Part shown: positions 16,491 through 55,640 of the stretch, in pieces
How the letters are laid out: every line of letters starts with the position of its first letter
Numbering within the stretch: the stretch's first letter is position 1
Assembly: GCA_964497315.1 (NCBI GenBank)
Contig: CAZCCH010000002.1
Span: 17,519-81,518 of the forward strand
Source of the DNA: an uncultured Planctomycetia bacterium
GTDB lineage: Bacteria; Omnitrophota; Gorgyraeia; Taenaricolales; CAZCCH01
Length of the DNA: 64,000 nucleotides
Direction: 5' to 3'
Position numbers and translations under genes: made by a program
Notes under the pieces: model-generated
Database searches by the model: none
Told to the model about the DNA's origin: nothing
What the model saw: the letters and a program-made list of their open reading frames with translations, nothing else

Positions 16491-16508
16491 CTATAAATAG
16501 AATAACTA

Positions 16509-16583
16509 TGGTGGGCCCAGAAGGATTTGAACCTCCGACCAAGTGATTATGAGTCACCTGCGCTACCGCTGCGCTATGGGCCC
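16509..16583 (-). tRNA. tRNA-Met, elongator type (anticodon CAT); tRNA-Ile2(LAU) cannot be excluded
   Basis: The reverse complement folds as GGGCCCA/TGGGCCC acceptor, GCGC D-stem, GGTGA-CTCATAA-TCACT anticodon arm and GGAGG-TTCAAAT-CCTTC T-arm, with encoded CCA. It has no 3xGC anticodon stem, so it is not the initiator. Confidence 0.85.
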
Positions 16584-16640
16584 ATTTAGTAGTGTTTCAG
16601 TAAAATTGGATTATACCAGATTTAGGTAGGGTTGTAAAGG
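16547..16640 (-). repeat. Direct repeat copy 1: tRNA-Met 5' half plus its promoter, duplicated at 21478-21562
   Basis: About 90% identity to 21478-21562. The second copy lacks 11 nt (CCGCTGCGCTA) in the D-arm. Confidence 0.85.
16610..16638 (-). promoter_or_regulatory. Sigma70 promoter of the tRNA-Met/tRNA-Val operon
   Basis: The minus strand reads TTTACA (16638-16633), a 17-nt spacer, then TATAAT (16615-16610), about 25 nt upstream of the tRNA-Met 5' end. Confidence 0.7.
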
Positions 16641-16647
16641 GGGATTT

Positions 16648-16932
16648 TTAGTGTCTTTTGGTGTTTTCGTAGTTCTTTCTTAAAATCCTGATAAATCTAA
16701 TAAGAAGATAAAGAGGGTAATAAATAAATGCTAGCCTGACACCAGCACCAAAAAGCAAAGCAGACATTTTATTATCAAAATAAGGATATGGGTTTTTTAA
16801 AAAGATCTTTGTGAAGTATTCAAAGTGATGTCCTGTTGGAACAGCTATCCATACAAGTGCAATGCTAACAACCATAGCAGCAAAAACAATATAAGCTTCT
16901 CTTTTTATGATTCTTTTTAGTTTTTTATCCAT
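16648..16932 (-). CDS. Small hypothetical membrane protein (two predicted TM helices)
   Basis: 94-aa ORF with host-like low GC and two hydrophobic segments. I recognise no family. Confidence 0.45.
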   Translation of the reverse strand: MDKKLKRIIKREAYIVFAAMVVSIALVWIAVPTGHHFEYFTKIFLKNPYPYFDNKMSALLFGAGVRLAFIYYPLYLLIRFIRILRKNYENTKRH

Positions 16933-16991
16933 TTAAACACTTCCTTATGCAATATTATACTGCTACAAGGATATGGAAGTCAAGGTAGGTA

Positions 16992-19900
16992 TTATGCTCC
17001 TGTTTTTGTTTCTTTATGGGACTTTAGCTCTTCAAGGAGTTGTAGTGTTTCTTCTGTGATATAGTGAATTTCATCAATAAATGCAGGTAGAGTTCTTAGC
17101 TCTGTAGCAATAAGTCTAATTAAGATTAAACCTCTTCTGCGTAATTCTTCGGCTGCTTGCTCAATAGTTTCACAAAGAATAACAAGCTCATATCCTAGGG
17201 CTGCATTTAATATATCAACATCTCCTTTAAGATGTGCAGTGTCTCCTGTTATGGCAATTGTTGTACCTTTAGGTAGTTCTAGGTCTTGTAGTGCAGGTAG
17301 AATGTTTTCACCAAGGGGTGATTCTATTATTAGACCTGTGGATAGGTTTTTAAAGTCACCAAATAGGCTTTCAGCGAAGCGACTCAACAAGCCTTTTATC
17401 TTAGAAACCAATAACTCTGTTACCTTATTACATGCTTCATCAATACCTTCTAGCTCCCTATACCGTTCAGCCTCAGCTCCGTCCATGCCCATAGATGTCA
17501 GTATCGTTTTTATCTGTGGATATCTTTTTCTGACTTCCTTTGCTAATTTCGGACCTGCCTCGCTATCAATTTTACCGGTTTCTTCATCTAGCATATTTAA
17601 ATCTGCTACCATTAAGTGAGGAAGTATTTCTAATTCATCTAATTTCCTTAATGCATCTTGTGGGTTAACTGTCTCAATAACCTTATATCCTTCTTTAGTA
17701 AAACCTCTTACTAATCTCTCTCTCTGATCTCCATCATCTTCTACTAAAAGAATTCTTATAGGTTGTGCTCCATCCTGCTCAGTGAAGCGGGGTCTTTCTC
17801 CAGCTAACCGCTGTTCCGACCTTTCTATGCTGGCGAAAGGTCCATATTCTACATCTAACGGATTTACCTTACCTTTTATCTCACTAAATCTGGTCTCATT
17901 TTCTTCTCTTGGTACTTTTATGGATGGGGGTTCGTTGTTAGGAAAAGGTAAGGGCCAGATGAACCCAAGGTCGTAGAATAATTGCCTTGCCTCATCAGGC
18001 ATAAGGTATTTTAAATATACATATGCTTGAGAATCACCGCCTCCTTTTACACACTGACCGGAAAAGAATTCTGGGACAAAACTCCTCAATCCAGAGGCCA
18101 AAAGTACCATGTCGTTAACTACTATGGCATGAGAGAGCGACGTATATGCAGACCCAAAATGCCTATTATCTTTTGAAGTCTCGTATATAACTTCCAATAA
18201 ACGTCTGAACTTATCTGGGTATTTTTTAGATGATAACGCAATGCAATCGTGAAGTATTTCGTGAAGAATAATCCAGTCAATGTCAATTCCGCCTACCACA
18301 ACAACCCTTTGAAAGGGTCGTCCAAATTCCTTTTCTAAATACTCAAATGACTCCTTATTATGGGTATCGTCTCTGTTTATATATACCGCGGTACTAATAA
18401 TACCCATGGCGTCATATTTTGACAATAACCGCAGAATTTCCTTACAAATTGTTTCGTCTACAATCACCATTAGTCCTGGCTCCAAAAAACCCTCCCTAAC
18501 AATTCCTGTCGGCAAAAACTCCTCAGCCGCAAACAACCTTCTTGCCTTAGTAGTGCTGTGCATTCGCTCGCCGGTTTTTAAATGGTCCTGTCCAGAGCTA
18601 TTACTTTCTGAAAACCTGGCTTCTGCTTCTCGTGCCCTCTCTATTTTTTCATTATCATTCTGCTCAGTGAAGCGGGCCCTGCAGACAAATAATCGCCATT
18701 TGTCTAAAGATATTTCCGGAACTTCAACTATGGGCCTTTCACTATCAGTGTCATTTTCAGTCCTTTCTTTAAACCAGATGCTGCCAAGGACATGGTCTAT
18801 CACCGGTTCTATAGGTACCTCTACCCTTTCAGATTCATTTTCAGGTGAGAAAACTACTGCAGTAGAAATACCTCGATCTTGTTTGTTTCTTAACCAGGTA
18901 ACTACAGTTTGTTTTCTATTATATTCATCACTGGCCATCTCATTTAAATGCTCCACAAGAGACTTCACCAAGTCTACCTCGTGATACTCTACGCCTTCCT
19001 CCTCTATCAATAGCTCTTTAAAAACCTGTTCGGTAGTGGCATCTATAGTCATTCCCAACTCCGTTCTCCTTTTAAAAGCCGCCTTAACGTACTCCATTAC
19101 CAAATCAGGATCTATACCATCATCATCTGCCAATCTTCTTCTAAAATTCTGCAGATAAAACGCGAAGTTCACAATCTCTGCTAAGCTTGGCCTATCAATC
19201 TCTGCCTTATGTAAGGCTCTCCTAATCTTCATTAGTTCGTCTAAGCGTTCAGCTTCTATATCCCATTCTCCATCTAATACATCTTCGAATGATTCTTTGG
19301 CGCGGACATTGCAGGCCTGAACCATTCCCCATGCTGCCTTCATTCTTACTGAAGAATGATTACTTTTATCTTTAAAGATTTCCTCCATGGCTTCATAGCC
19401 ATCATCCTCAAAACGGGCTAACGTATATGCAGCGTGCACATGTTTAGAAGAAGGTGTTAAAAGATGCCCTCTCATAAACTGTACTATTTCTTGAGCTATC
19501 TCCCTCTCTCTCCTGAGCATGGTTAAGGCCTCTGCAGCAAAAAGGGCTACATTTGCATTCCGGCCCACAGCTGCCCTTTTTAAGGCTTCCAGGGAACTGG
19601 GGTCACCTATATAACCTAAGGCTTCAGCTAGCCTGTAACGAAAGTCATCGATTCTTTCAGGCTTGGGCGTATCAGGTTCGTAAGAAGAAATGAGCGCTTC
19701 ATTCAGATGAGGTGCTACTGCAACGCCCTTTCTGACAAAAGAGGACATTGCCTCATGTTGAACATGCGCACTCCTATGGGCCAAGCACCTAAGCAATAAT
19801 CTGAGGGCTTCTTGGTCATCATATCCAGCTACAGTTCTCACAGCTGACACTAATGTGTCTGAATCGCCAGCACCTTCTGCTACAAGAGCTGCAATTGCCA

Positions 19901-41692: not shown

Positions 41693-43006
41693 TTATCTCC
41701 CTATAAGAGCTAAATTATCATAAATAAAGGGCTTTGTCAATCGCACAATAGATCCAAAGGTTGCACTTTCAGTCACCTTTGTTATTTTAACTGGTACTAT
41801 CTGGTTTATCGAATTCTTTTCTGCCGCAAATGAAACCTCAATATATGTATCTGTATAGCCTGAATACAAGTTATTCTTCTTATCTTTCATTTTGTGTATT
41901 AAAACCGGGAGAGTCTTACCGAGAAATTTATTTCTGTATTCAAAAGAACTTTTTCCTGTAACTTCCTTCATTTTAACCAATCTTTTTTTCATTACATTAC
42001 GAGGTGTCTGGTCTTTCATATTAAAGGCTTCTGTCCCTTCTCTTTGGCTATAACGAAATATATGAGATCTACCTGGTGCAATCTTTTTGATAGCCTTTAT
42101 TGTATTTTCAAAAGCAAACTCACTCTCTCCAGGAAAACCTATCATGACATCTGTTGTAATTGCAATATCCGGGATAAATTCTCTGGCCTTTTTTACTTTC
42201 TTAAAAAATTCACTTGCAGTATACCTTCTATTCATCCGATGCAAAATTTCATCATCGCCACTTTGAAGTGGTATGTGTAAATGTGGACAGATTTTTTTAG
42301 AATCTGCTATTTTTTTTAATAAGTCTTCTGTTACATAAATTAACTCAATAGAGCTTAAGCGAATTCTTTCAAGGCCTTGTATTTTTTCTAAGTCCGACAA
42401 TAATCCAACTAAGTCGGGCTTGTATGCACCTAAACATATACCACACAAAACTATCTCTTTAAAACCATTTTGTACAAGTATTTTTACTTCTTCGACAATA
42501 TCCTTACCTGGCCTGCTTTTTGATTTACCACGCACTAAGGATACCTTACAGTAAGAACATTTGTTATTACACCCATCTTGAATTTTAACAAATGCCCTTG
42601 TATGTCCTGAAAAGTTGGTTATATGTTTGCGGGAATTAGATTTTGGGCTAAGGCTTATTGCTTGATTATCGCAAAGACTATTAACGATTTTTACAATGTT
42701 ATCTTTTTGTAAATTTTCGACTATTGCATTAACTCCAGGAATTTTTAAAATTTCCTCTTTGTCTTTTTCAACGTAGCAACCAGTAACAATAACTGCCTTT
42801 GGGTCTTTAAAGGCGCATTCTCTAATTAAGCTCTTTGATTTACTATCTGCCTTTGCTGTGACAGTACAAGTATTTATAATATAAATATCAGCGTCATCTT
42901 CTATATCAGTTTCTTTAAACCCAGCTGATAGCAAAAGTTCTCGCATGGCTTGAGTTTCATACTGGTTGACTTTGCAACCTAAGGTAAAAATTTGAAAGTT
43001 TTTCAT
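41693..43006 (-). CDS. MiaB/RimO-family radical SAM methylthiotransferase (MtaB-like) with a C-terminal TRAM domain
   Basis: 437 aa. N-terminal MTTase domain (IFTLGCKVNQYET), radical SAM CxxxCxxC (CNNKCSYC) and a C-terminal TRAM region. Confidence 0.8.
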   Translation of the reverse strand: MKNFQIFTLGCKVNQYETQAMRELLLSAGFKETDIEDDADIYIINTCTVTAKADSKSKSLIRECAFKDPKAVIVTGCYVEKDKEEILKIPGVNAIVENLQKDNIVKIVNSLCDNQAISLSPKSNSRKHITNFSGHTRAFVKIQDGCNNKCSYCKVSLVRGKSKSRPGKDIVEEVKILVQNGFKEIVLCGICLGAYKPDLVGLLSDLEKIQGLERIRLSSIELIYVTEDLLKKIADSKKICPHLHIPLQSGDDEILHRMNRRYTASEFFKKVKKAREFIPDIAITTDVMIGFPGESEFAFENTIKAIKKIAPGRSHIFRYSQREGTEAFNMKDQTPRNVMKKRLVKMKEVTGKSSFEYRNKFLGKTLPVLIHKMKDKKNNLYSGYTDTYIEVSFAAEKNSINQIVPVKITKVTESATFGSIVRLTKPFIYDNLALIGR

Positions 43007-43146: not shown

Positions 43147-44325
43147 ATGAGTTTTTCTTCAAAAAGCAATTCAGGGCAAATTGAAGTTTCTGTAGTAATG
43201 CCTTGTTTAAACGAAGCTGATTCAGTGGGAATTTGTATTGAAAAAGCCATTGAGGGCCTTAAGAAAGCTGGCGTTAGTGGAGAAATCATAGTAGTAGATA
43301 ATGGTTCTACTGATAATTCTATCCAAATAGCTAATTCTAAAGGTGCTAGGGTAATAAAAGAACCTATAAAGGGTTACGGAAGTGCTTATATAACAGGTAT
43401 TAGACATGCTAAAGGAAAATATGTGGTTATGGGTGACGCTGACGACAGTTACGATTTTACCCAAATAGAAAAATTTTTAAAACCCTTGCAAAAAGGCTCT
43501 GATCTCGTCATGGGGTCAAGGCTTAAAGGTGAAATACTCAAGGGTGCTATGCCTTGGACACACCGCTATATTGGAAACCCTTTCCTCACCAGCTTCCTGC
43601 AATTTCTATTCCACACAAAGGTATCTGATGCTCACTGCGGAATGCGTGCCTTTAGTAAAGAGGCATTTGATAAAGTTGGGTTTAAAACCAAAGGTATGGA
43701 GTTTGCCTCAGAGATGATAGTTAAAGCCTTGCGAGCTGGTCTAAAAATTAAAGAAGTACCTATTAAATACCATCCGCGTAGAGGTAAATCTAAGTTAGTT
43801 CCTATGGAAGATGCCTGGCGGCATATGCGTTTTATGCTCCTTTTTAGTCCAACGCACTTATTTCTGCTTCCGGGGCTATTTTTATTTATCTTGGGCATAA
43901 TAGGGTTAATAGCATTATTGCCTGGACCGCTGCCTCTTGGATTTCATAAATACGATATACACTTTATGATAATGTCTAGCCTGATGACCATATTGGGTTT
44001 TCAGGTTATAAATCTAGGGTTTTATGCTAAGGTATTTTCCTTCCAAGAAGGTTATATTAAGCTTAGTGAAGACAGAGTTGTAAGTTTTCTTTCTAAAATA
44101 TTCAATTTAGAAAAGGGATTATTGATAGGTCTTTTAATTCTTTTGGCTGGATTAGGAATTAATATCTTTATCTTATGGAAATGGATCCTATCAAATTTTG
44201 GAGAACTTTTCGAAGTAAGACGTGCCCTATTTGCATTAACTCTTATGGTTATAGGCACGCAAACCATTTTTTCTTCTTTTTTCTTAAGCCTATTGGGAGT
44301 TGAACATTTTGAAACAGAAAAATAA
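43147..44325 (+). CDS. GT2 polyprenyl-phosphate glycosyltransferase (DPM1/ArnC/GtrB-like) with a C-terminal four-TM domain
   Basis: 392 aa. The GT-A fold has VVMPCLNEA...VVDNGSTD...DADDS (DxD). Confidence 0.8.
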   Translation: MSFSSKSNSGQIEVSVVMPCLNEADSVGICIEKAIEGLKKAGVSGEIIVVDNGSTDNSIQIANSKGARVIKEPIKGYGSAYITGIRHAKGKYVVMGDADDSYDFTQIEKFLKPLQKGSDLVMGSRLKGEILKGAMPWTHRYIGNPFLTSFLQFLFHTKVSDAHCGMRAFSKEAFDKVGFKTKGMEFASEMIVKALRAGLKIKEVPIKYHPRRGKSKLVPMEDAWRHMRFMLLFSPTHLFLLPGLFLFILGIIGLIALLPGPLPLGFHKYDIHFMIMSSLMTILGFQVINLGFYAKVFSFQEGYIKLSEDRVVSFLSKIFNLEKGLLIGLLILLAGLGINIFILWKWILSNFGELFEVRRALFALTLMVIGTQTIFSSFFLSLLGVEHFETEK

Positions 44326-45652
44326 CAATTTAATTTCAAGCATTCTACCTATTGTTCTAATCCTCCTTTTTGCTTTCTTTCTCAGAATCCCCACCTTTTG
44401 GCTTTCACACACAAACTATGATGAAATGGCATATCTTAGCCTAGCCTTAAAATTAGATAAATTCGGATTTAAAGACTTTAACAATACATATAATTTACGG
44501 AACGTTGATATTATGCGCACGAGGAATCTCGGCGGGCCCTTTTCTTCAGAAAAAGAAATGGGTAACATATTAACTGGTTCAGGGGTAACTTATGAAGCCA
44601 AATCACCTAACCACCGCCCACCTTTATTTAGTTATCTATTGATGCAATCTCATCGTTTTTTTCTTAAAGATAGGCCGTACTTAGTAGCGAATAAAAATCT
44701 CAGTCTAAAATCTCCATTTTTAGTGCAATTGCACGCAGTAATTATTCCTCTGATTTTTAGTCTTGCTCTTATCTTTTTTACATACCTTCTAGGTAAACAC
44801 TTATTTTCACAAAAGGTAGGGGTGTATGCGGCACTATTCATGAGCTTATCTCCAATTGATTTATTGGTTTCTCAAAGGGTTTGGGCTGGAGATCTTCTTG
44901 CATGCCTTACCACGCTAGCTGTTCTTTTTTACTGGCTTGGCTTGAAGAAAAATAAAGTGATTTTTTCTATTTTAGCTGGAATCTCAGTGGGGTTAGCTAT
45001 ATCTACTAAGATGACTGGTATGTTTGCAATAATTGCAATTCTTTCCTTTCATATCTGGCGCACTAGAGGAGAATGGTTAAGATTTAATTTAAAACCTTTA
45101 TTCTTAGATAGGCATATTATCAGTTTATTGCTAGCAGCATTCTTGACCTCAGGCCCCTGGCTTTACATCTATTACGAAGGAAGAATCCCTTTCATTCAAA
45201 CATCAGCAAAAATTCCTACGGGTTCTTTTGAAAAACTAACTCCTTGGCTAAGTTTTACTGCTACCAGACCCTGGTATATGTATTTAATAAATCCTGTAGT
45301 CCAACTGCCTGTATTTATTTTTGCCTACTGGATATTTGCCGAAGCATTCTTCAAGAAGAAACAAAATGATGGAAGCATGCTATTGTTTTTTTGGTTTTTA
45401 ACAACAGTTTTTGTGCTTTCCTTCTTGGTCTCTTGGAGTGAATTAAGGTATCTGCTACCTACATATCCATCATTGGCTATCTTAGCAAGTAAATACTTAT
45501 TACAGCTCTACGATTATTTAGAAAAATACTTAAAGACATGGAGCATGCAATTGTTGTTCATTGTCTTAATGCTACTAAATGGATATCAAGCCCTTAGGTT
45601 GGCAATTCCGCTTATAGTTGCCAGAGCTATTGCAATTCCTATTCCATTTTAA
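44300..45652 (+). CDS. GT-C family glycosyltransferase (PMT / ArnT / GT39-GT83-like)
   Basis: 450 aa polytopic membrane protein with an extracytoplasmic first-loop acidic motif (YDEMAY), typical of polyprenyl-P-sugar-dependent GT-C enzymes. Confidence 0.7.
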   Translation: MNILKQKNNNLISSILPIVLILLFAFFLRIPTFWLSHTNYDEMAYLSLALKLDKFGFKDFNNTYNLRNVDIMRTRNLGGPFSSEKEMGNILTGSGVTYEAKSPNHRPPLFSYLLMQSHRFFLKDRPYLVANKNLSLKSPFLVQLHAVIIPLIFSLALIFFTYLLGKHLFSQKVGVYAALFMSLSPIDLLVSQRVWAGDLLACLTTLAVLFYWLGLKKNKVIFSILAGISVGLAISTKMTGMFAIIAILSFHIWRTRGEWLRFNLKPLFLDRHIISLLLAAFLTSGPWLYIYYEGRIPFIQTSAKIPTGSFEKLTPWLSFTATRPWYMYLINPVVQLPVFIFAYWIFAEAFFKKKQNDGSMLLFFWFLTTVFVLSFLVSWSELRYLLPTYPSLAILASKYLLQLYDYLEKYLKTWSMQLLFIVLMLLNGYQALRLAIPLIVARAIAIPIPF

Positions 45653-45680
45653 GCTTCGACCATTTTTTAACAAAAATCAA

Positions 45681-47036
45681 ATGAAAGTATTACTGGTTAA
45701 TCCTCCACCGGAACAAATAATAGAACCATGGGATGAACTCGCTTATCCGCATTTGGGCTTAGCTTATTTAGCCGCTTTTTTAAAGAAAAATGGCGTAGGT
45801 GTTTCAATTATAGATGGCAAATTTGAAAAATTAAATATTGATCAAATAGCGGAAAAAACAAAGCGCATCTCTCCTGACATAATTGGCATTACAGCAATGA
45901 CTAATTATATAAAAGCATCTGCATGTATGGCTAAAAGGTTAAAAGAAATATTTCCCGATGCTGCTTTTTTAGTTGGTGGCGCGCACCCAACGGCGTTACC
46001 TACGGAAACATTGAGGGAATTTCCAGTTTTTGATTTGGCCATAATGGGCGAAGGGGAAAAAACTTTATTTGAAATTGCTGAATCCAAATCTAATCAGTGG
46101 CATTCAATTCAAGGGATAGCATATAAAAAAAGTGGGACAATAACTCAAAATTCTGCTCGTGAAAAAATTGAAGATTTAGATTCTTTACCCTTTCCGGCCT
46201 GGGATATCTTGCCCCGTGCAAAAACATATCCTTTAATAACTTCAAGGGGGTGTCCTTTTAGGTGTATTTTTTGCATGAGATTGCATGGCAATAAAATACG
46301 CTTGCGTACCACAAGCAACGTATTACAAGAAATGGAAATTTTAGCTGAAGAATATGGTGTCCGGCATATTCCTATAATGGATGAAATATTCACTATTAAT
46401 AAAGATAGAGTTTCAGCAATCTGCAACTCCATGATTACTGAAGGGTTAAATAAAAAACTTACATGGGGTGTAAATTCAAGAGTCACTGGAATTAGTCTTG
46501 AAATGTTTAAAAAAATGCATGAAGCAGGTTGTAGAAAAATAGATTTTGGAGTAGAGTCAGGAAATAATGAAATTTTAAAAATGATTGATAAAGGAATTAC
46601 TACAAAAGATGCTATATCGGCCGTTAAATTGGCTAAAAAAGCACGCATAAAAACTCATAGTTTATTTATCTTAGGTCACCCCCATGAAACTCAAAAAACA
46701 ATTCAGGATACTACCAAATTGATCGTCAAATTAAATACTACTTATTTATCTGTAGGCATTATGGTTCCTTATCCGGGTACAAAGGTATATGAAATGGCCA
46801 GGGCCGGTTTAGGTGGCTATCAAATAATGAGTCGTGATTGGAATGATTATAATAAACAAATAGGAAATGCCTTAGAACTAAAAAATTTAAATAGAAAAAC
46901 GCTAGAGAGGCAGCAGGTTATTTCTTATCTTAAATTCTATTTGTGTAATTTTAGGTTAATAGGTTTACTTAAATTTTTGCTTTCGTATAGAAAGGCGGCT
47001 TATTTCTATCTGAAGAATAAGCTATTGAGGATATAA
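45681..47036 (+). CDS. B12-binding (cobalamin-dependent) radical SAM protein
   Basis: An N-terminal B12-binding domain (MKVLLVNPPP...GITAMT...GGAHPT) is followed by a radical SAM core (CPFRCIFC). The likely start is the MKVLL at 45681 rather than the track start at 45618. Confidence 0.8.
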   Translation: MKVLLVNPPPEQIIEPWDELAYPHLGLAYLAAFLKKNGVGVSIIDGKFEKLNIDQIAEKTKRISPDIIGITAMTNYIKASACMAKRLKEIFPDAAFLVGGAHPTALPTETLREFPVFDLAIMGEGEKTLFEIAESKSNQWHSIQGIAYKKSGTITQNSAREKIEDLDSLPFPAWDILPRAKTYPLITSRGCPFRCIFCMRLHGNKIRLRTTSNVLQEMEILAEEYGVRHIPIMDEIFTINKDRVSAICNSMITEGLNKKLTWGVNSRVTGISLEMFKKMHEAGCRKIDFGVESGNNEILKMIDKGITTKDAISAVKLAKKARIKTHSLFILGHPHETQKTIQDTTKLIVKLNTTYLSVGIMVPYPGTKVYEMARAGLGGYQIMSRDWNDYNKQIGNALELKNLNRKTLERQQVISYLKFYLCNFRLIGLLKFLLSYRKAAYFYLKNKLLRI

Positions 47037-47040
47037 ATAA

Positions 47041-47964
47041 ATGCCAACGATATTTTCCATTATTATTCCTGTAAAAAATGGAGAGAAAACTATAAAAAAA
47101 TGTATAGATTCGCTGTTAAATCTAGATTGCGAAAATTTTGACATACTTGTGGTTGACGATGGTTCAAAGGATAACACTTTAAAAATTTTAAAAGATTACA
47201 CGAAAAAGATAAAGCTTATTACTGTAGATAAAGTTGGTCCATCTAGAGCAAGAAATTTAGCTGTAACGCACGCGGATGCGCAATATATTGCTTTTACAGA
47301 CAGTGATTGTACTGTAGATAAAAATTGGGTAAAAGAACTATTTAAGGGTTTTGAACTATTTCCCGATGCTGTTGCTTGTGGGGGAATTCAAAAATTACCA
47401 AAAGATGCCACAGAATTTGAAAAAAGGGTTTTTTTATTTATGAAAAAAACGGGGTTCGTTTCTGATTATATGCGAACAGCAAAGGACAATAGCATTGTAG
47501 AGGTAAAACACAATCCCTCCTGTAACGTCATGTATAAAAAAGATGTATTTTTAAAAGAAGGTGGTTTCTTAGAAAATTTATGGCCGGGGGAAGATGTGGA
47601 ATTAGATCATCGCTTGATAAAAAATGGACATAAGTTAATTTTTAACCCTAAGGCTGTGGTTTTTCATCACCGTCCTAAAAATCTGAAATCGTTTCTAAGG
47701 ATGATGGATAGATATGGTTGGGCTCAAGGTTTTCTGGTAAAAAAATACGGAATCTTCAGAAGGGTTCATTACGTGCCTTTGGTAAGTTTAGTTGCTTCTA
47801 TTGTTGTCTTAGTTGGTCTGTTTTTAAAGCTTTGGGGCATACCATTACTTTTAGTGCTTAGTTTGCTTTTGCTATTTAGATTTGATTTCCACCTTGCTCT
47901 TCTGGCTCTATTGGGCCTTTTCTTGTGGCAGAAGGGTTTTTTAAAAGGATTTATTAATACTTAA
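47041..47964 (+). CDS. GT2 glycosyltransferase with a C-terminal TM region
   Basis: 307 aa. FSIIIPVKNGEKTIKKCIDSLL...VVDDGSKD...DSD matches a GT-A fold. Confidence 0.8.
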   Translation: MPTIFSIIIPVKNGEKTIKKCIDSLLNLDCENFDILVVDDGSKDNTLKILKDYTKKIKLITVDKVGPSRARNLAVTHADAQYIAFTDSDCTVDKNWVKELFKGFELFPDAVACGGIQKLPKDATEFEKRVFLFMKKTGFVSDYMRTAKDNSIVEVKHNPSCNVMYKKDVFLKEGGFLENLWPGEDVELDHRLIKNGHKLIFNPKAVVFHHRPKNLKSFLRMMDRYGWAQGFLVKKYGIFRRVHYVPLVSLVASIVVLVGLFLKLWGIPLLLVLSLLLLFRFDFHLALLALLGLFLWQKGFLKGFINT

Positions 47965-47970
47965 AACATT

Positions 47971-48714
47971 ATGAAAAACAAAAAGGGTCATTATTCTTAT
48001 TGGGCGAATGCTCTAGAACTACCTCTCTATTCAAAAAAATTAAAATATTGGGGTGAAATGTCATACCTAGCAATGTTAAAAGAGGCCATAACGACAATAG
48101 AGGGTATATCATTATTGGAAATAGGCCCTGGAAAAGGGTACTTCGCAGAAAAGGCAATTGAAAGGGAAATTGATTATTATTCTATCGAAAGATCTGAAAT
48201 TCTAGTTGAGGAGTTATTGCGGAAAAATATAAATGTAATACGTGGGGATGCTTCAATTGTAGATGAAAATATCTTTAAGGATAAAAAGTTTGATGCAGTA
48301 TACCTATCTCATGTCATAGAACATTGCGATACAAGAAAGGAAGTTGAAAACTTAATAAAAAAATGTAGGGGTTGGTTGAAACCAAATGGCTACATTATGA
48401 TAAATGCTCCTAATGTCTTAAGTTATAAATTTGATTTTTGGATATCGGACTATACCCATAATTTTGTTACTACACCTCTTAGAGTAAAAAATTTATTACT
48501 AGATAATGAGTTCGAGCCTCTTTACGAACAAAGAACAGTTTTTGGTCTAAGAAATATTATATTGAGAAAATTTGCAGGTTGCTTATTCTTTCTTTGTCCT
48601 AATGCTATCTTAGATAGAATTGGAAGAATTTTTATGCCAAAAGGAGGAGAAGCTGGCTTTTCTATCTACGGACATGAAAACTTCACCATTATTGCCAAAA
48701 GGATGGAAAAATGA
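47971..48714 (+). CDS. Class I SAM-dependent methyltransferase
   Basis: 247 aa with motif I LLEIGPGKGYFAE. Confidence 0.7.
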   Translation: MKNKKGHYSYWANALELPLYSKKLKYWGEMSYLAMLKEAITTIEGISLLEIGPGKGYFAEKAIEREIDYYSIERSEILVEELLRKNINVIRGDASIVDENIFKDKKFDAVYLSHVIEHCDTRKEVENLIKKCRGWLKPNGYIMINAPNVLSYKFDFWISDYTHNFVTTPLRVKNLLLDNEFEPLYEQRTVFGLRNIILRKFAGCLFFLCPNAILDRIGRIFMPKGGEAGFSIYGHENFTIIAKRMEK

Positions 48715-49436
48715 AAACAAAAGAAGATAATTATGATATAACTTTAAACGAAATCGCATGGCTTCGTAAACCCATGGAAAAAATTCTTAAGAAAATCCAA
48801 AAATATGATTTTATTACCCCGAACTTACTAACTACTCTCTCCTTTGTCTTCGCCTTGATAGCTGCTATATTATTTCTATTGCCAGGCGACTCACGATTAG
48901 CCTTTGGTGCAGCACTGATTATTATTTCATATTTATTAGATTGTGCTGATGGAAGATTGGCGCGTTTGAAAAAGATGGAGTCAAGTTTTGGTTTTTGGTT
49001 TGATAGAATAACTGATCAGATAAAGCTTTCGCTTTTAATTTTATGTCTTGGCATGCGAGCTTATTTCATAGATTTCGCAAGTATTTCTATTTTAATTTTT
49101 AGTGCATTTGTGGTGGTAATTCAACTTGTTAAAGAATTTAATTGGGCGCTATTTGAAATTTTTCTACTCAAAAATAAACCAAAAACAGATTATGGCAAAT
49201 TCATACTGGATAATATAAACATTAAATTTACTAAGCAGACTTTAATAAAGCGGGTTTCTTTTCACATTGTTAGAATTTTGGCTTTTTTGCATTATGAGCA
49301 AATTTTTGTACTAAGCATATTCCCTTGTATCATAAAACCTGAGGCAACCATTTACATCTATGGTATTTTATCCTTAATTTCTCTTATAGGTAGAATTTCA
49401 ATATACGCAAAATTACTTTTAAAAAACAATGCATAA
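48711..49436 (+). CDS. CDP-alcohol phosphatidyltransferase family protein
   Basis: 241 aa membrane protein with the signature D-x2-D-G-x2-A-R...D-x3-D (LLDCADGRLARL...FDRITD). Confidence 0.8.
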   Translation: MKTKEDNYDITLNEIAWLRKPMEKILKKIQKYDFITPNLLTTLSFVFALIAAILFLLPGDSRLAFGAALIIISYLLDCADGRLARLKKMESSFGFWFDRITDQIKLSLLILCLGMRAYFIDFASISILIFSAFVVVIQLVKEFNWALFEIFLLKNKPKTDYGKFILDNINIKFTKQTLIKRVSFHIVRILAFLHYEQIFVLSIFPCIIKPEATIYIYGILSLISLIGRISIYAKLLLKNNA

Positions 49437-50169
49437 AAACCCCATAGCTATAATTCTAGCTGCAGGTAAAGGTATCAGGTTGCAGCCTCTTACGAAAGAA
49501 ATACCGAAACCTCTTATTGAGGTAAACAATGTCCCTATTTTATTTCATACCCTTGAGTGTTTAAAAAAATTAAAAATAGACAAGTGTATTATCGTAGTTG
49601 GATATAAAGCAAAGCTGTTTCAAGAATTGGTAGATAGTAAATATAAACATGATATAGATATTACCTATATTACAAATAAAGATTTTGATAAAACTAACAA
49701 CATGTATTCATTGTGGCTTGCAAGTGATTATCTCAGTAACAACGATTGCATATTAATCGAAGCTGATGTCTTGTTTGATTATAAAATATTGAGTTCTTTG
49801 GATTTTCGTAATCCAACTTCTTTTTGGTTGGTAGATAAATTTAAAGAAAATATGAACGGGGCCCTCCTCATAACAGATAAAACTGGTAAAATTGAAAAAA
49901 TTAAAATAGTAAGAGAAAAATTACTGGAATATAAAAACAACTATTATAAGTCCATTGGTATATTAAAAATTAAAAAAGATTTGGGTAAAAAACTTTCTGC
50001 ATGGTTAAATAAAGAAGTAACGGCTAATAATAAAAATATTTACTATGACCTGGTAATTGCAAAATATTTAAAAGAAGCAAACCTATTTGTAAAATACATA
50101 AATAATCTCAAGTGGTGGGAAATAGATGACGAAAGTGATTTGAAATACGCGCAAAAATTATTTAAGTAA
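49429..50169 (+). CDS. Nucleotidyltransferase (sugar or phospho-alcohol cytidylyl/nucleotidyl transferase, LicC/IspD-like)
   Basis: 246 aa. AIILAAGKGIRLQPLT is the NTP-transferase glycine-rich loop. Confidence 0.75.
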   Translation: MHKNPIAIILAAGKGIRLQPLTKEIPKPLIEVNNVPILFHTLECLKKLKIDKCIIVVGYKAKLFQELVDSKYKHDIDITYITNKDFDKTNNMYSLWLASDYLSNNDCILIEADVLFDYKILSSLDFRNPTSFWLVDKFKENMNGALLITDKTGKIEKIKIVREKLLEYKNNYYKSIGILKIKKDLGKKLSAWLNKEVTANNKNIYYDLVIAKYLKEANLFVKYINNLKWWEIDDESDLKYAQKLFK

Positions 50170-50173
50170 AAAA

Positions 50174-51028
50174 ATGGACGTCCTAAATTATAAAAAAGTC
50201 AAAGAGTTCTGGGAAAATAGATATAAAAGGATAAATGTAGCGGGTGATTTATATCTAGCAAACCTATCTGACAATATTCCCCTACAAGCTATATATAAAG
50301 ATAAGCTGGAAAAACAAATTATAAGCAATAAAGTTTATTTAACTAAAGATATGGATGTATTAGACCTTGGATGCGGAACAGGGAGAATGGCATTGTTTTT
50401 TGCCAAGAAATGCAAACATGTAACAGCTATTGATTTTTCTGCAAATCTTTTAAAGATAGCCGCTAATAAGATAAAAAGTATGGACTTAGACAATATTAAA
50501 TTAATTCAACAATCTATTGCTAATTTTCACAGTAATCACAAATTCGATATTATTTTCATTGGAGGCGTATTGTCCTTTCTGAATGATATAGATGTAGAAA
50601 ATGTAGTGCGCAATATTAAAGATATGCTAAAAGAAAACGGGAAATTGATAATAAGAGATTCTCTTCGTTGGAGAAAAAGATGTGTTTTAAAAGAAAAATT
50701 TATAAATAATTTTAAAGATGATTACAGTATAATATATAGAACAATAGGAGAAATTAAAAGGGTTTTTAAAAAAAATACATTCTATTTAAACTCGGAAAGC
50801 AGCTTAGCTGTTTTCCCTTTCATGGGATTGTACCATTATCCAATAAGGTTAATAGCTGGAAAAAGCAAAATCTATTCCAAATTATCTAAAATCTATTTTG
50901 GGTTAGTCTATCGTTTTATTCCTTATATCCGCTGCTATAAAAATATGAGATTCTATAAAGTGATTTCTTACCTGCTTAATAGGTACGATCAAAGGTTTTT
51001 TATATATTTCCTAAAAAATAGACCCTGA
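50174..51028 (+). CDS. Class I SAM-dependent methyltransferase
   Basis: 284 aa with motif I VLDLGCGTGRMALFFAKK. Confidence 0.75.
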   Translation: MDVLNYKKVKEFWENRYKRINVAGDLYLANLSDNIPLQAIYKDKLEKQIISNKVYLTKDMDVLDLGCGTGRMALFFAKKCKHVTAIDFSANLLKIAANKIKSMDLDNIKLIQQSIANFHSNHKFDIIFIGGVLSFLNDIDVENVVRNIKDMLKENGKLIIRDSLRWRKRCVLKEKFINNFKDDYSIIYRTIGEIKRVFKKNTFYLNSESSLAVFPFMGLYHYPIRLIAGKSKIYSKLSKIYFGLVYRFIPYIRCYKNMRFYKVISYLLNRYDQRFFIYFLKNRP

Positions 51029-51034
51029 AAATCA

Positions 51035-52273
51035 ATGAGAGATACAAAAAATAATTTCTTGCTTCTTCCATCACTATATTTAATATGTTCTAGAATCTCC
51101 TTAGCTATATCTGGTGTATTATTTTGGTGCTTAGCAGCGCGCATTTATTCAATAGAAGATATAGGATTAGGGGCAGCTTTAATCTCAGTCTCTTCTCTTA
51201 TTATCTTTATCTCCTCTCTAGGCATTGCGCCTACTTTTGTAAGATTCCTGCCTCAAAAAGAAAACAAGGGTAAACTATTAGGTACCTTCTTTGGCCTTTC
51301 ACTGTTCTTGTTGGTTGTACTTTGTGTAATATTTCTCATGAATTCAAGTTTCTTTTTACCTAAGGTTGATTTTCTAAAAACTTCCTTTTATCCTTTTGTT
51401 TTCTTTGTTTTTGTTTTATCTATGCAAATTTTTCACACATTGGATAGTGTCTATACAGCCTTTAATGTAACCTGGTTGGTATTATTTAAAAATGTTATTC
51501 AAAATTTCTTAAAGATTGGCTTGCTTCTTTCGCTCTTCTCCTTAGGTAGCTTTGGCATTTTCTCCTCTAATTGTTCAGCAGCAATAGTAGCTATTTTAAT
51601 ATCTGTTATTTATTTTATTAAAAAACATCCATCAATTAACTTTAAACTAGGAATAGACATTTCTGTTCTAAAAAAGCTTCTTCCTTTTTCTTTGACAAAT
51701 TTTTTGAATTCAGCTTCCTTGTATCTTCCTGGAATGGTTTTTCCCATTATCATAATCTCCGCATTTTCACAAAGAGAAGCTGGATTGTTTTACATACCCT
51801 GGATGATATTTCTTACTTATTGCAGTTTTATCACTTCAGTCAATAATATATTTTTAATGAAAGCTTCATATGGCGAAAATATTAAAAAGTTACTTAAAAA
51901 AACAATCGCATTTTCTTTTGCATTGGGACTTGTGGGATTCTTAATTTTTACTATCTGGGGAAATAAGATTCTTCTTATATTTAAGGAAGATTTTTCTCAA
52001 AATTCCCTTATGACTCTAAAGCTTCTTTTTTATTCCATATTCTTTTTTATTATTAACCAGATTTATATTACAATTCTAAATATCAATGAAAAAATACTAA
52101 AATTAGGGATAATTACTTCTTTAATAATCATAAGTATAATTATCTTTACTATAATATTGTTGCCTACAATGAAAACAGAGGGCATGGCATTGGCTTGGTT
52201 AGTTGCCAATCTTATAGGAAGCATTTATGTCTTTGTGGATTTTTTAATTACAGGTAGGAAAATGTTAAAATAG
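51035..52273 (+). CDS. MOP-superfamily oligosaccharide flippase (Wzx-like)
   Basis: 412 aa with 12 or more TM segments and polysaccharide biosynthesis protein architecture. Confidence 0.7.
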   Translation: MRDTKNNFLLLPSLYLICSRISLAISGVLFWCLAARIYSIEDIGLGAALISVSSLIIFISSLGIAPTFVRFLPQKENKGKLLGTFFGLSLFLLVVLCVIFLMNSSFFLPKVDFLKTSFYPFVFFVFVLSMQIFHTLDSVYTAFNVTWLVLFKNVIQNFLKIGLLLSLFSLGSFGIFSSNCSAAIVAILISVIYFIKKHPSINFKLGIDISVLKKLLPFSLTNFLNSASLYLPGMVFPIIIISAFSQREAGLFYIPWMIFLTYCSFITSVNNIFLMKASYGENIKKLLKKTIAFSFALGLVGFLIFTIWGNKILLIFKEDFSQNSLMTLKLLFYSIFFFIINQIYITILNINEKILKLGIITSLIIISIIIFTIILLPTMKTEGMALAWLVANLIGSIYVFVDFLITGRKMLK

Positions 52274-52979
52274 CCACTGTAGCAATGGCTGCTGTATCGC
52301 ATTTTAGAACTGTAGGACCTAAAGAAACTAATTTACAACCTTCCTTTTTTGCTAATCCCATTTCCGACGGACTAAAATCCCCCTCCGGTCCAATAAACAA
52401 TGCCATGCTGGATATTTTTGATTTTGGTAATACACTCTTTAAATCCTTTGTTTCTTCATCAAGGCAGGCTATAAGTTTCAAAGGGTGATTTTTTACCGAC
52501 TTTAAAGCAGTTTTAAAGCTTGTAATATTTTCAATCTTAGGGATATCCCACCTTCCGCATTGCTGTGAAGCCTCTATTGCGATTTTATTCCAACGCTTTA
52601 AGCGAAGTACCTTCTTGGCCTCATTTAGCTTTACAATGGTTCTTTCTGTCTGAATAGGTATAACAATACTCACTCCTAGCTCGGTTGTCTTCTGTATTAT
52701 ATAATCCATTTTATTCTGCTTTGGTACAGCACAAACCAAAGTAATCTTTGGTAGGTTTAAAGGTAATACCTTTCTAACTGATTTAACCCTTACCCTGGCT
52801 TCCCTAGGGGAAATCTTCTCAATAATGCCAACGAACTCTTTTCCTTTGCCATTAAAGGCAACTATGCTATCACCTTCCTTCAGCCTCATTACATCCTTTA
52901 TATGATGAAACCTGTTTCCTGAGATTATAATGGTTGAGTCGTTAACTATGGATTCTGGGGTAACGTAAAATCTACTCAT
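52248..52979 (-). CDS. rsmE: 16S rRNA (uracil1498-N3)-methyltransferase RsmE
   Basis: 243 aa with a PUA-like N-terminus (RFYV...GNRFHHI) and a SPOUT C-terminal domain (GPEGDFSPSE). Confidence 0.85.
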   Translation of the reverse strand: MSRFYVTPESIVNDSTIIISGNRFHHIKDVMRLKEGDSIVAFNGKGKEFVGIIEKISPREARVRVKSVRKVLPLNLPKITLVCAVPKQNKMDYIIQKTTELGVSIVIPIQTERTIVKLNEAKKVLRLKRWNKIAIEASQQCGRWDIPKIENITSFKTALKSVKNHPLKLIACLDEETKDLKSVLPKSKISSMALFIGPEGDFSPSEMGLAKKEGCKLVSLGPTVLKCDTAAIATVAILTFSYL

Positions 52980-54460
52980 TCTTCACCAAAAATACATGCA
53001 GAAAAGATAAAAATCTCAGCATTTTTCTTCCAAGCATCAGCAGGCAGACCTGCCTTGTTGCAGGTATGCGCAAGAAACTCATCCCTATTCCAATCATATT
53101 CTGTAGCTACCTGCGGTAAGAGCAAACCTGAATAAAATCCTTTTCTAATCAAGATACCATGCGTACCAACTTTAATCTTTTCTACATCTTGAATCTTTTC
53201 CAACTCAGATAAAACAGAAATTTCTATTTTTAACTCATCAAGCTCTTCAGCTCCTACCGCAGGAAACCTTGGATCACCGCTTGAAGACTGTATTGCCATC
53301 TCAGCTATAGTATCACATAAAGGCTTATCAGCTATTATGCGACCAATGCACCCTCTAAGGTTTCCATTTTTTTTAATAGTTACAAAGGCACCTTTTTTTG
53401 TAAGTAAAACAGGGTCTTTTTCCTTAAACTTTACTCGCTTTCCTGTTTTAATATAAGTTTCCATAGATTCTTTGGCTATCTTTAATATTCTTGCCTTTTG
53501 AGCTTCTGTTAACATCATTCCTCCTTCGGTATTTTTAAAAGCGGGGCTTTCTGATTGAGGCTCGGGTATTGATGTCTTTTTATAAACAACGGCACTAACA
53601 TAGCCAACAACTTGCCTTTTATCGCCCGTAATATCACCTGAGTTCGCATAATTGAGCACTTCGATATCTTTAGCCCCTATTTTCTCTGCTAACATGAGCG
53701 TGCAAGTAACCGGTGCATATCCACAACAGGGCTGATCTTTAAAAACCCCTCTTTGGAAGATCTCTTTATACTTAAACTCTTTTATTAGATTAATGGTTTC
53801 TGCATCTTGCGTGACTGCTTGGTTATAGCTTTTATAATGAGATAAATCTGTGCTTGCTATAATAACTATATCTTCTCTCTTTGATAATACGTCTAATAAA
53901 ATATCAGAAAGAATATTACAATCTTCATAGTTTGGGTTACCAAAAACAACAGGAACAATTTTAACATCAGGTATTACCTTTTTTAAAAAAGGTAATTGAA
54001 GCTCCAGGGAATTCTCACCTTCAAATACTTCTTTAGAAAACTTTATCCTTTCTGATTTTGATATCATTAAATCAGCTAATTCTTCATCTATTTCAAGATC
54101 TCCCAGCGGAGTAATAAATTCACTAGTCTTATAAACTGAGATACCATCATAATGCTTCCTATGGCTAAATCCTAATATAATAGCTGTTTCTATCTCTTTG
54201 TGTGACAATAAGTTATAGCCATAAGCAGCTACTGCACCTGAAAACATAAGGCCTGCATGTGGAGAGATTATAGCAATTATTTTACCTTCAACTGTGGGTA
54301 CAGTGGCTGAATTTAGGTAGCTGTCAAGTTGCTTATTGAGTGTTTTTTTATTGGAAGGATACCAGTTACCTGCCAAATCTGCTTTTTTAGATTGGGCCAG
54401 GGCTTGGCTATTAAAAAGAATTAAAGACATACACAAGAATACTATAAATTTTGTGCGCAT
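52976..54460 (-). CDS. Signal-peptide-bearing fusion: MEMO1-family (AmmeMemoRadiSam system protein B) domain plus AMMECR1 (protein A) domain
   Basis: 494 aa. Sec signal MRTKFIVFLCMSLILFNSQALA. The Memo region has IISPHAGLMFSG and STDLSHY. The AMMECR1 region has GAFVTIKKNGNLRGCIGRI. Confidence 0.75.
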   Translation of the reverse strand: MRTKFIVFLCMSLILFNSQALAQSKKADLAGNWYPSNKKTLNKQLDSYLNSATVPTVEGKIIAIISPHAGLMFSGAVAAYGYNLLSHKEIETAIILGFSHRKHYDGISVYKTSEFITPLGDLEIDEELADLMISKSERIKFSKEVFEGENSLELQLPFLKKVIPDVKIVPVVFGNPNYEDCNILSDILLDVLSKREDIVIIASTDLSHYKSYNQAVTQDAETINLIKEFKYKEIFQRGVFKDQPCCGYAPVTCTLMLAEKIGAKDIEVLNYANSGDITGDKRQVVGYVSAVVYKKTSIPEPQSESPAFKNTEGGMMLTEAQKARILKIAKESMETYIKTGKRVKFKEKDPVLLTKKGAFVTIKKNGNLRGCIGRIIADKPLCDTIAEMAIQSSSGDPRFPAVGAEELDELKIEISVLSELEKIQDVEKIKVGTHGILIRKGFYSGLLLPQVATEYDWNRDEFLAHTCNKAGLPADAWKKNAEIFIFSACIFGEE

Positions 54461-54494: not shown

Positions 54495-54568
54495 TGGTGG
54501 AGCCACCGGGAGTCGAACCCGGAGCTCATCCTTGCGAAGGATGCGTTGTCCCATTCAACTATGGCCCC
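54495..54568 (-). tRNA. tRNA-Ala (anticodon CGC)
   Basis: The reverse complement is GGGGCCA...TGGCTCCACCA, with the G3:U70 identity pair, anticodon arm CATCC-TTCGCAA-GGATG, T-arm CCGGG-TTCGACT-CCCGG and encoded CCA. Confidence 0.8.
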
Positions 54569-54569
54569 G

Positions 54570-55640
54570 TTATTTCTTTTTAAAGGCTTCTGTTAATGAA
54601 ACCAGTTCTTCACTATTTGAGGAGCGACGCATAGCCTCATCCCAGGAAATCACATGGTTTAAGTATAATTCTGCCAATGATTGGTTCATCGTGCTCATGC
54701 CGTATTTTTTTCCTGTTTGAATACATGTATAAATCTGAGGGAGGCTATTTTCTCTGATGAGGCTTCTTATGGGAGGGGTTACAGTCATTAACTCATAAGC
54801 AAGAGCCCTTCCTCCATCCTTGACCTTGGGTATTAACTGCTGTGAAGCAACGCCTATTAGAGCCATAGACAGCTGAACCCTGATCTGTTGCTGTTGGTAG
54901 GGTGGGAAAACATCTATAATTCGGTTAATTGTATGAGTGGCATCTATTGTATGCAGGGTAGCTAAAATAAGATGACCTGTCTCAGCTAAAGTTAAAGCTG
55001 TATGAATTGTATCTAAGTCTCTCATTTCTCCAATCATGATTATGTTTGGGTCTTGCCTAAAAACCCTGCGTAAGGCTTCAGCAAAAGAATGCGTATCTGT
55101 GCCTACCTCTCTTTGGTCTATAGTGGCCTTGTTATGCTTGTGTAAATATTCAATTGGATCTTCAATTGTAACTACATGGCAGGGTCTGTGTTCATTTATA
55201 TATTTTATCATAGCTGCTAGTGTCGTGGACTTTCCACTTCCAACAGCACCTGTAACCAAAAATAAACCGCTGTGCTTTAGGCAAAAATCCTCTATTAGAT
55301 TTGGCAGACCTAATTCTTTAAAACTCGGTATATTAAACGGTACAAGCCTTATACTCATAGCTACGCAATTACGCTGCATATATAAATTAATACGGAATCT
55401 ACTTAAACCCGAAATCCCGTATGAAAAATCTAATTCTTTTGCTTTTTCAAACTCTTCTATCTGTTTTTCTGTCAAAATCGAGTATGCCAATTCCCTTGCC
55501 TGTTCTACACCTAAAGGCTTTTTTGTTCCAGAAAATTCCAAAATACCATCTACCCTAAGTTGCGGAGGAATCCCTGTTGTGATGTGTAAATCTGATGCAT
55601 CGCGCTTCACCATCTCTTTTAATAATTCTAACATTTGCAT
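54570..55640 (-). CDS. pilT: Type IV pilus retraction ATPase PilT
   Basis: 356 aa with Walker A GAVGSGKST, the AIRNLIRE-like motif (IRSLIRENS) and a His box. Confidence 0.9.
   Translation of the reverse strand: MQMLELLKEMVKRDASDLHITTGIPPQLRVDGILEFSGTKKPLGVEQARELAYSILTEKQIEEFEKAKELDFSYGISGLSRFRINLYMQRNCVAMSIRLVPFNIPSFKELGLPNLIEDFCLKHSGLFLVTGAVGSGKSTTLAAMIKYINEHRPCHVVTIEDPIEYLHKHNKATIDQREVGTDTHSFAEALRRVFRQDPNIIMIGEMRDLDTIHTALTLAETGHLILATLHTIDATHTINRIIDVFPPYQQQQIRVQLSMALIGVASQQLIPKVKDGGRALAYELMTVTPPIRSLIRENSLPQIYTCIQTGKKYGMSTMNQSLAELYLNHVISWDEAMRRSSNSEELVSLTEAFKKK

Follow-up and report, generated by a model that had tools for sequence, protein, structure and literature searches.

Memo and AMMECR1 are conserved proteins found in organisms as distant as archaea and humans; in the human genome, AMMECR1 maps to a disease-gene region. 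In prokaryotes, the two proteins are known as proteins B and A of the AmmeMemoRadiSam system (TIGR04336 and TIGR04335), the third component of which is a radical S-adenosylmethionine (SAM) enzyme (TIGR04337). Balaji and Aravind (2007; PMC2034487) noted AMMECR1–dioxygenase fusions with a radical SAM neighbourhood and proposed a cytoplasmic RNA base modification. In the literature searched, cytoplasmic RNA modification is the one published functional proposal for the prokaryotic pair. Here, we analysed a 64,000-nucleotide stretch of contig CAZCCH010000002.1 (hereafter called the window; guanine–cytosine (GC) content 36.8%), which encodes a Memo–AMMECR1 fusion on its minus strand. This stretch also forms part of the 114.5-kb JGI metagenome contig 3300009105|Ga0117905_1000187. 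The best homologues of this fusion and its syntenic loci belong to metagenome-assembled genomes (MAGs) of Omnitrophota. We consider it somewhat probable that the open reading frame (ORF) specifies a two-domain enzyme, exported by the general secretory (Sec) pathway, of an extracytoplasmic AmmeMemoRadiSam variant, and that the radical SAM and DsbD genes of this system have gone from the locus.

How does this locus compare with the described systems? As in the AmmeMemoRadiSam system, both domains score far above the family cut-offs, and a true TIGR04337 gene stands beside the fusion at orthologous loci; public databases label the relatives “AmmeMemoRadiSam system protein B/A”. The differences are that the present gene joins proteins A and B into one polypeptide behind a predicted Sec signal peptide, that the radical SAM enzyme of this clade carries a twin-arginine translocation (Tat) or Sec-like leader, that the Sec-like type comes with a DsbD/CcdA-like gene, and that the window locus is without the radical SAM gene. 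The fusions of Balaji and Aravind resemble the present one in the domain pair, the fusion itself, the radical SAM association, and the RGChG and DxRa motifs (PMC2034487). Export signals go unmentioned in the passages of that paper on AMMECR1, whereas here they are predicted on the fusion and the radical SAM enzyme alike; the rsmE and mtaB neighbours fit the RNA proposal, but the export signals do not. In the literature searched, we found no description of an exported or Tat-type AmmeMemoRadiSam system or of a Tat-targeted radical SAM enzyme; the word “AmmeMemoRadiSam” was absent from the titles and abstracts of the papers mentioning the system, and a recent survey of complete Omnitrophota genomes does not mention an exported AmmeMemoRadiSam. 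Taken by itself, the window gene is unremarkable, as it belongs to a large Omnitrophota family that has already been annotated. What appears new is how export signals are arranged across the entire system, as is the contrast that its full and bare loci offer.

The domain composition of the ORF is clear. Residues 27–291 match Pfam Memo (PF01875; E 3e-65, 220.5 bits, cut-off 27) and residues 326–491 match Pfam AMMECR1 (PF01871; E 3e-56, 190.2 bits, cut-off 25), while the NCBIfam scores are 266.9 bits for TIGR04336 (cut-off 26) and 186.5 bits for TIGR04335 (cut-off 99). The AlphaFold2 model, calculated from a 57-sequence input, comprises an N-terminal helix (residues 2–20) and two folded domains, with a mean predicted local distance difference test score (pLDDT) of 92.4; the pLDDT falls below 50 in residues 298–315 of the linker. 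In Foldseek comparisons, the N-terminal domain matches the MEMO1 structures 7m8h, 7l5c (copper-bound), and 7kq8 (iron-bound) with target template modelling scores (TM-scores) of 0.81–0.82, and thereby shares the fold of human MEMO1 (also 3bcz). The two proteins differ in that their identity is about 23%, and that MEMO1 is cytosolic, single-domain, and eukaryotic, with no radical SAM partner. The C-terminal domain has the same fold as the archaeal AMMECR1 proteins PH0010 (1vaj) and MM0484 (1zq7), with target TM-scores of 0.72–0.82 (0.82 for 1vaj) and 39–42% identity over the structural alignment; the archaeal proteins, in contrast, are stand-alone and cytoplasmic. Pfam, NCBIfam, and Foldseek therefore agree with the preliminary description, made from the sequence, of a protein-B-like Memo domain fused to an AMMECR1 (protein A) domain.

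The structural check of the Memo metal site, which that description had called for, found all of the metal-site residues intact within a MEMO1-like fold. These residues, H68, H100, D205, H208, and C246, are invariant in the family alignment, and we take them to be the equivalents of H49, H81, D189, H192, and C244 of MEMO1. Equally invariant are the RGCIG (369–373) and DPRF (396–399) motifs of the AMMECR1 domain, which correspond to the RGChG and DxRa motifs defined in PMC2034487; the domain also has the double-RAGNYA fold of AMMECR1 proteins. By homology, we infer that the fusion binds a metal and is catalytic, with Cys371 in RGCIG as the candidate catalytic residue. The plus-strand frame across 52976–54460 is riddled with stop codons.

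Where does this fusion act? Its leader, MRTKFIVFLCMSLILFNSQALA, is followed by QS and consists of a basic N-region with two K/R residues (MRTK), a 12-residue uncharged core with a mean Kyte–Doolittle value of 3.05, and an A-L-A site. It has all of the features by which we heuristically define a Sec signal (a positive N-region, a hydrophobic core of about 7–15 residues, and small residues at −3 and −1), and it lies wholly upstream of the start of the family model at residue 26. We examined the N-termini of 119 homologues with 46–54% identity to the window protein. The basic N-region and hydrophobic core recur in 105 of them, and in 103 of those 105 a small-x-small site lies right before the Memo motif; the leaders of 14 homologues have a lipobox-like site. 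The 14 homologues without the full leader mostly resemble 5′-truncated gene calls. Because the leader is conserved in 105 of the 119 homologues, it is no chance feature. The signal peptide that the preliminary description had called clear is thus supported by its conservation: the fusion is very probably exported, with the leader as a conserved property of the family, and the extracytoplasmic assignment is well supported. The window encodes a secretin as well as a type IV pilus, and its flank encodes ExbB and ExbD, which indicates that the organism has an outer membrane and a periplasm. Two other targeting modes were considered and rejected for the window protein. It is not a lipoprotein, since the leader has no [LVI][ASTVI][GAS]C lipobox and its sole cysteine (C10) lies inside the core, within VFLC, and it is not a Tat substrate, since the leader has no RR motif.

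The position of the start codon bears directly on this assignment. The public gene call (P0001, 484 residues) begins at M11, so that the N-region and half of the core are lost (54430–54460, minus strand), and such a truncated call would conceal the export signal from automated annotation. No Shine–Dalgarno sequence was found at either M1 or M11. We prefer M1, because the homologues keep the full leader; a start at M11 leaves no hydrophobic core and fits no homologue, and was rejected. The choice also affects an alternative in which the fusion remains in the cytoplasm or at the inner surface of the membrane, through an uncleaved anchor or the M11 start, and modifies RNA together with the co-transcribed RsmE and MtaB. 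The conservation of the rsmE–mtaB operon in Omnitrophota and the 4-nucleotide overlap between the fusion stop and the rsmE start speak for this alternative, as do the public call at M11, the lack of Shine–Dalgarno support for either start, and the RAGNYA fold of AMMECR1, which is typical of nucleic-acid or nucleotide binders according to PMC2034487. Nevertheless, the short 12-residue core, the positive N-region, and the AxA site have the geometry of a signal peptide rather than an anchor, and the conserved full leaders, some of them with lipoboxes, argue in the same direction. We therefore regard a cytoplasmic fusion as very unlikely.

The leader of the radical SAM enzyme points to the same side of the membrane. 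Among the 120 best relatives of the operon enzyme in Omnitrophota, 109 have a hydrophobic N-terminal leader, in the form of a roughly 30-residue extension whose N-terminus is basic and which contains an uncharged run of 18–19 residues. The net charge is about +2 in the N-flank of this run and about 0 in its C-flank, and the catalytic domain is therefore predicted to lie outside. In order to view this feature more widely, we surveyed 112 radical SAM loci of many phyla, from species-representative genomes and metagenome loci (given as L numbers below). The leaders comprise 65 with an RR Tat motif, such as ITRRDFLKKSALVALGG and MNRRRFFQTAAGAGLALG, 7 with a KR variant, and 22 of the Sec-like type; 18 enzymes, including those of Bacteroidales, have none. 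Tat-type enzymes occur in Thermodesulfobacteriota, Acidobacteriota, Planctomycetota, Aminicenantes, Zixibacteria, Altiarchaeota, and Aenigmatarchaeota, among other phyla (L017, L027, L040, L043, L072, and about 60 more; gene at about 10001–11100 in most). Six of them score 358–396 bits on TIGR04337, and three of the six also pass the curated TAT_signal model (TAT_signal_seq). Beside the surveyed enzymes, Memo and AMMECR1 form fusions with Sec or lipoprotein leaders; in Bacteroidales, the fusion, like its radical SAM enzyme, has no leader. The assumption in the preliminary description that the partner enzyme must be cytoplasmic accordingly does not hold for this clade, in which the enzyme carries an apparent Tat or Sec-like leader. 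Radical SAM enzymes are also linked to periplasmic proteins in HXS anti-phage systems (PMC13128918) and among the anaerobic sulfatase maturases. In those cases, however, the radical SAM enzyme remains cytoplasmic and does its work before the protein is exported, whereas here it bears an export signal itself.

The type of leader correlates with a further gene. A DsbD-like gene lies within 6 kilobases (kb) of 19 of the 22 Sec-like enzymes, and of none of the 72 Tat-type and none of the 18 leaderless ones (Fisher p = 4e-17, for loci that are phylogenetically related and with a DsbD profile built from three Omnitrophota sequences). This distribution makes mechanistic sense, because a cysteine-rich enzyme exported unfolded needs reduced thiols, while a folded Tat cargo would not. 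The CcdA/DsbD thiol-reductant pathway of cytochrome c maturation is similar, in that a DsbD_TM/DsbD_2 gene accompanies cysteine-rich proteins that are exported unfolded. It differs in that a link to radical SAM, Memo, or AMMECR1 seems undescribed, and the window has no such gene. The canonical Tat signals on the partner enzymes and the presence of the DsbD/CcdA-like gene within the same operon are further points against a cytoplasmic fusion.

Next, we compared the gene order around the fusion across Omnitrophota. In the ancestral-type arrangement, tRNA-Ala(CGC) is followed by the radical SAM gene (TIGR04337), the fusion, a CcdA-like DsbD_2/DsbD_TM gene, rsmE, and mtaB, in that order. This full operon is found in L005, L007–L014, L022, L057, L101, L106, and L164, and L007 also shares the upstream type IV pilus cluster of the window. 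The radical SAM enzyme of the orthologous locus is a true AmmeMemoRadiSam enzyme, with 388.6 bits on TIGR04337 (cut-off 220). The tRNA-Ala(CGC) gene lies at 9676–9751 in L004, 8804–8879 in L005, 9908–9981 in L007, and 9902–9977 in L108, and occurs in other loci as well; the DsbD_2/CcdA-like gene lies at 11501–12175 in L005, 12568–13227 in L007, and 12587–13237 in L008, and is also present in L009–L015, L020, L032, L093, and L097. The window shares these anchor genes, but both the radical SAM and the DsbD-like gene are cleanly absent, leaving 34 nucleotides between tRNA-Ala and the start codon. Similarly bare are L004, L006, L102, L103, L105, L107, L108, L110, L111, and L112, and probably L117 and L161; most of the bare loci keep the tRNA-Ala anchor. 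The double absence thus occurs in at least 10 loci besides the window, in several subclades of the fusion. In L004 (11464–12384) and L006 (11473–12408), the slot of DsbD, after the fusion and before rsmE, is taken by a gene for a protein of 306–311 residues with a membrane helix at its N-terminus, internal repeats, and no NCBIfam match.

Does the bare fusion remain functional? Of the 47 alignment columns with a conservation of 95% or more in the radical SAM-linked fusions, the bare fusions keep 44 and the window protein keeps 46. The nearest clade, about 100 proteins with 46–55% identity to the window protein, is strongly conserved and shares the bare arrangement. The absence of the two usual operon partners might suggest that the gene is a functionless, decaying remnant of a disrupted operon. 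Against this stand the intact 494-residue frame, the conserved columns, the confident structure model, the large clade with the same arrangement, and the finding of an identical fusion protein on contigs of several samples, so that decay is barely credible. The post-leader motif, ADLAG or PNVSG, was tried as a marker of the clade without radical SAM and discarded, since L020 and L022 pair an ADLAG-like fusion with a radical SAM gene and bare loci occur with both motif types. In an approximate tree, L020 branches beside the window, and its ADLAG-type fusion has a radical SAM gene 3.5 kb away.

Where, then, is the partner of the window fusion? The only genes in the window with a CxxxCxxC motif encode MtaB and a B12-binding radical SAM protein (45618–47036). 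MtaB is ruled out as the partner, since it is a TIGR01579 tRNA methylthiotransferase. The B12-binding protein scores under every curated NCBIfam cut-off and belongs to the opposite-strand cluster outside the system. The preliminary description was thus correct both in finding no AmmeMemoRadiSam radical SAM gene adjacent to the fusion and in setting aside the B12-binding protein near 45.7 kb. A complete system, with a TIGR04337 gene adjoining the A and B genes, is not present in the window. The tblastn searches of the window with four TIGR04337 proteins, three DsbD-like proteins, and the insert protein of L004 and L006 returned only chance or Cys-motif matches. In the extended contig, the upstream ExbB–ExbD–DUF2582–CutA1 synteny is that of the bare loci L004 and L006. 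Four radical SAM proteins were considered as candidates and dismissed. P0263 and P0266, which share the window's study series, belong to other organisms, with GC contents of 0.40–0.43 and tetranucleotide correlations of 0.82–0.91, as compared to 0.99 for the window's own contig, and P0281 and P0292, which share the source profile of the window protein, come from unrelated samples.

Several of these observations weigh against the interpretation that we favour. Neither a TIGR04337 nor a DsbD gene, nor a remnant of either, was found in the window and the 10 kb on each side of it (about 83 kb of the parent contig), and none of the four candidates comes from the window's organism. Since the two missing genes lie on opposite sides of the fusion and both are absent from all 11 bare loci, repeated outright loss is simpler than repeated relocation. 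Moreover, the export of the fusion is judged from sequence heuristics, it is not obvious how an extracytoplasmic radical SAM enzyme would be supplied with SAM or low-potential reductant, and the conserved rsmE–mtaB operon with its overlap would suit the cytoplasmic RNA-modification role put forward in PMC2034487.

These points lead to an alternative in which the exported fusion works alone in the window lineage, the radical SAM and DsbD-like genes having been lost from the genome rather than relocated, so that it has a radical SAM-free extracytoplasmic activity. The clean removal of both flanking genes, the recurrence of the double absence in 11 loci of different subclades, the partner-free 83 kb, and the strong conservation of the nearest clade, which marks the bare fusion as clearly functional, are consistent with this alternative. 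To our knowledge, eukaryotic MEMO1 and AMMECR1 also occur without this radical SAM enzyme. On the other hand, 83 kb say little about a whole genome, and the conserved residues of the bare fusions are not shifted relative to those of the radical SAM-linked ones. Unlinked partners are also known within the phylum: the radical SAM gene stands alone in L016 and L058, a radical SAM–DsbD pair stands alone in L015 and L032, and a second large Omnitrophota radical SAM clade, with DsbD and a fusion of its own, occupies a different locus (L020, L093, and L097). Likewise, among the 17 Tat-type enzymes flanked on each side by at least 8 kb of sequence, 8 have no Memo or AMMECR1 gene within 8–10 kb. We regard the independent activity of the fusion as a possible but doubtful explanation. 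Because unlinked radical SAM genes are common in the clade and the bare fusions keep their full constraint, a partner elsewhere in the genome is somewhat likelier than independence. We lean, a little beyond even, towards an enzyme encoded elsewhere in the window genome; its loss from the genome seems rather unlikely.

The preliminary description had proposed a radical SAM-independent extracytoplasmic role. The conserved leader supports the extracytoplasmic part, but independence is not supported for the family, since the TIGR04337 gene lies directly upstream at the orthologous loci; in the window lineage, independence would follow from the loss of the enzyme. A combined version, in which the whole system is extracytoplasmic in a clade of many phyla, with the radical SAM enzyme exported by Tat or, in Omnitrophota, through a Sec-like leader alongside a dedicated CcdA-like reductant channel, and in which the window lineage, among several, has shed the radical SAM and CcdA genes while its Memo–AMMECR1 module is active on its own, is improbable in our view. 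If correct, it would provide the first extracytoplasmic radical SAM system and an exported Memo–AMMECR1 module with an activity of its own.

For the favoured interpretation, in which the window encodes a Sec-exported member of an extracytoplasmic AmmeMemoRadiSam variant, we propose the following scheme. The pre-protein would pass through Sec, and signal peptidase I would cleave it after Ala22, as its sequence and conservation suggest. The mature protein would then fold outside the cytoplasmic membrane, where the Memo domain would bind a metal through H68, H100, D205, H208, and C246, and the flexible linker would join it to the AMMECR1 domain with the candidate catalytic Cys371. As the gene context suggests, the fusion would act on a putative envelope or periplasmic substrate together with the PflA-like radical SAM enzyme (TIGR04337). 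The latter would itself be exported: most phyla would use Tat for this purpose, and Omnitrophota would rely on a Sec-like leader, with the DsbD/CcdA-like membrane protein then probably maintaining the exported cysteines in the reduced state. In the window lineage, the radical SAM and DsbD genes would have been removed from the ancestral operon.

Export signals on both the fusion and the radical SAM enzyme across a large clade point to a substrate in the envelope or periplasm. They also raise an enzymological question: from where would an extracytoplasmic radical SAM enzyme draw its SAM and low-potential electrons? The full operons and the bare loci provide a natural comparative test of whether Memo–AMMECR1 needs the radical SAM enzyme.

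Table. Features of the fusion gene and its surroundings in the window
Feature	Coordinates	Strand	Remarks
Whole ORF	52976..54460	minus	494-residue pre-protein, Memo–AMMECR1 fusion (AmmeMemoRadiSam proteins B and A); stop codon included
Predicted Sec (signal peptidase I) signal peptide	54395..54460	minus	Residues 1–22, MRTKFIVFLCMSLILFNSQALA; predicted cleavage before QS
Memo/LigB-fold domain	53582..54385	minus	Residues 26–293; from profiles, alignment, and Foldseek
Inter-domain linker	53498..53581	minus	Residues 294–321; disordered in the AlphaFold2 model
AMMECR1 domain	52979..53497	minus	Residues 322–494; from profiles, alignment, and Foldseek
tRNA-Ala(CGC)	54495..54568	minus	34 nucleotides upstream of the ORF; conserved 5′ operon anchor in full and bare loci
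rsmE (16S rRNA m3U1498 methyltransferase)	52248..52979	minus	Start overlaps the fusion stop by 4 nucleotides; conserved downstream neighbour
mtaB (tRNA ms2t6A methylthiotransferase, MiaB-family radical SAM)	41693..43006	minus	TIGR01579, 437.6 bits (cut-off 357); normally right after rsmE
Opposite-strand glycosyl/lipid cluster	43147..52273	plus	About 9 kb, between rsmE and mtaB; outside the AmmeMemoRadiSam system
pilT	54570..55640	minus	Last gene of the upstream type IV pilus cluster; in this region L007 has pilus genes, then tRNA-Ala and the radical SAM gene

The surroundings of the fusion gene show some further features. The gene may be co-transcribed with tRNA-Ala(CGC); in a scan for promoters and terminators, the counts were at background and no upstream site was conspicuously promoter-like. 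The 3′ end of rsmE overlaps that of the convergent plus-strand ORF 51035–52273, which encodes a 412-residue protein, by 26 nucleotides (52248–52273), and no terminator-like structure was found around this overlap. In other Omnitrophota, rsmE and mtaB are adjacent, and the opposite-strand cluster of the window is an insertion between them. Its genes encode a family 2 glycosyltransferase (GT2), a PMT-like protein, the B12-binding radical SAM protein, a second GT2, two methyltransferases, a CDP-alcohol phosphatidyltransferase, a nucleotidyltransferase, and the 412-residue protein, which is polytopic. A similar cluster sits upstream of the operon in L008 (1–9577). In the same locus, HxsD and two radical SAM genes directly follow mtaB (15341–18311) and have the look of an HXS-type anti-phage system (compare PMC13128918).

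The second Omnitrophota arrangement (L020, 9986–15372; L093, 10001–18334; L097, 10001–18320) begins with a leader-bearing radical SAM gene, followed by a gene for a spermine-synthase-like membrane protein of about 700 residues, DsbD_2, and the convergent fusion. An 85-residue ORF, an ATP-grasp ligase gene, a Peptidase_Mx-like gene, and a CBM_11 gene come after the fusion, and this gene content may hint at the substrate pathway. The stand-alone radical SAM gene of L058 (10109–11077), in an Omnitrophota MAG, encodes a leaderless, TIGR04337-like protein of 322 residues, and no Memo or AMMECR1 gene lies within 10 kb of it. Cytoplasmic-type and exported-type radical SAM enzymes are thus both present in Omnitrophota. 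Leaderless, unfused copies also occur near the exported fusion, for Memo in L014 (9488–10276) and for AMMECR1 in L036 (12572–13090), which indicates that exported and cytoplasmic paralogues can coexist.

Finally, very long ORFs lie near several of the loci. One of 4357 residues with tetratricopeptide repeats is encoded on the window's own contig, and others elsewhere reach 5905, 2060, and 2116 residues; their positions are 13697–20948 in L089, where the ORF runs off the locus end, from 20452 in L006, from 20427 in L004, and 14322–20672 in L058. These ORFs agree with the giant proteins reported for Omnitrophota.

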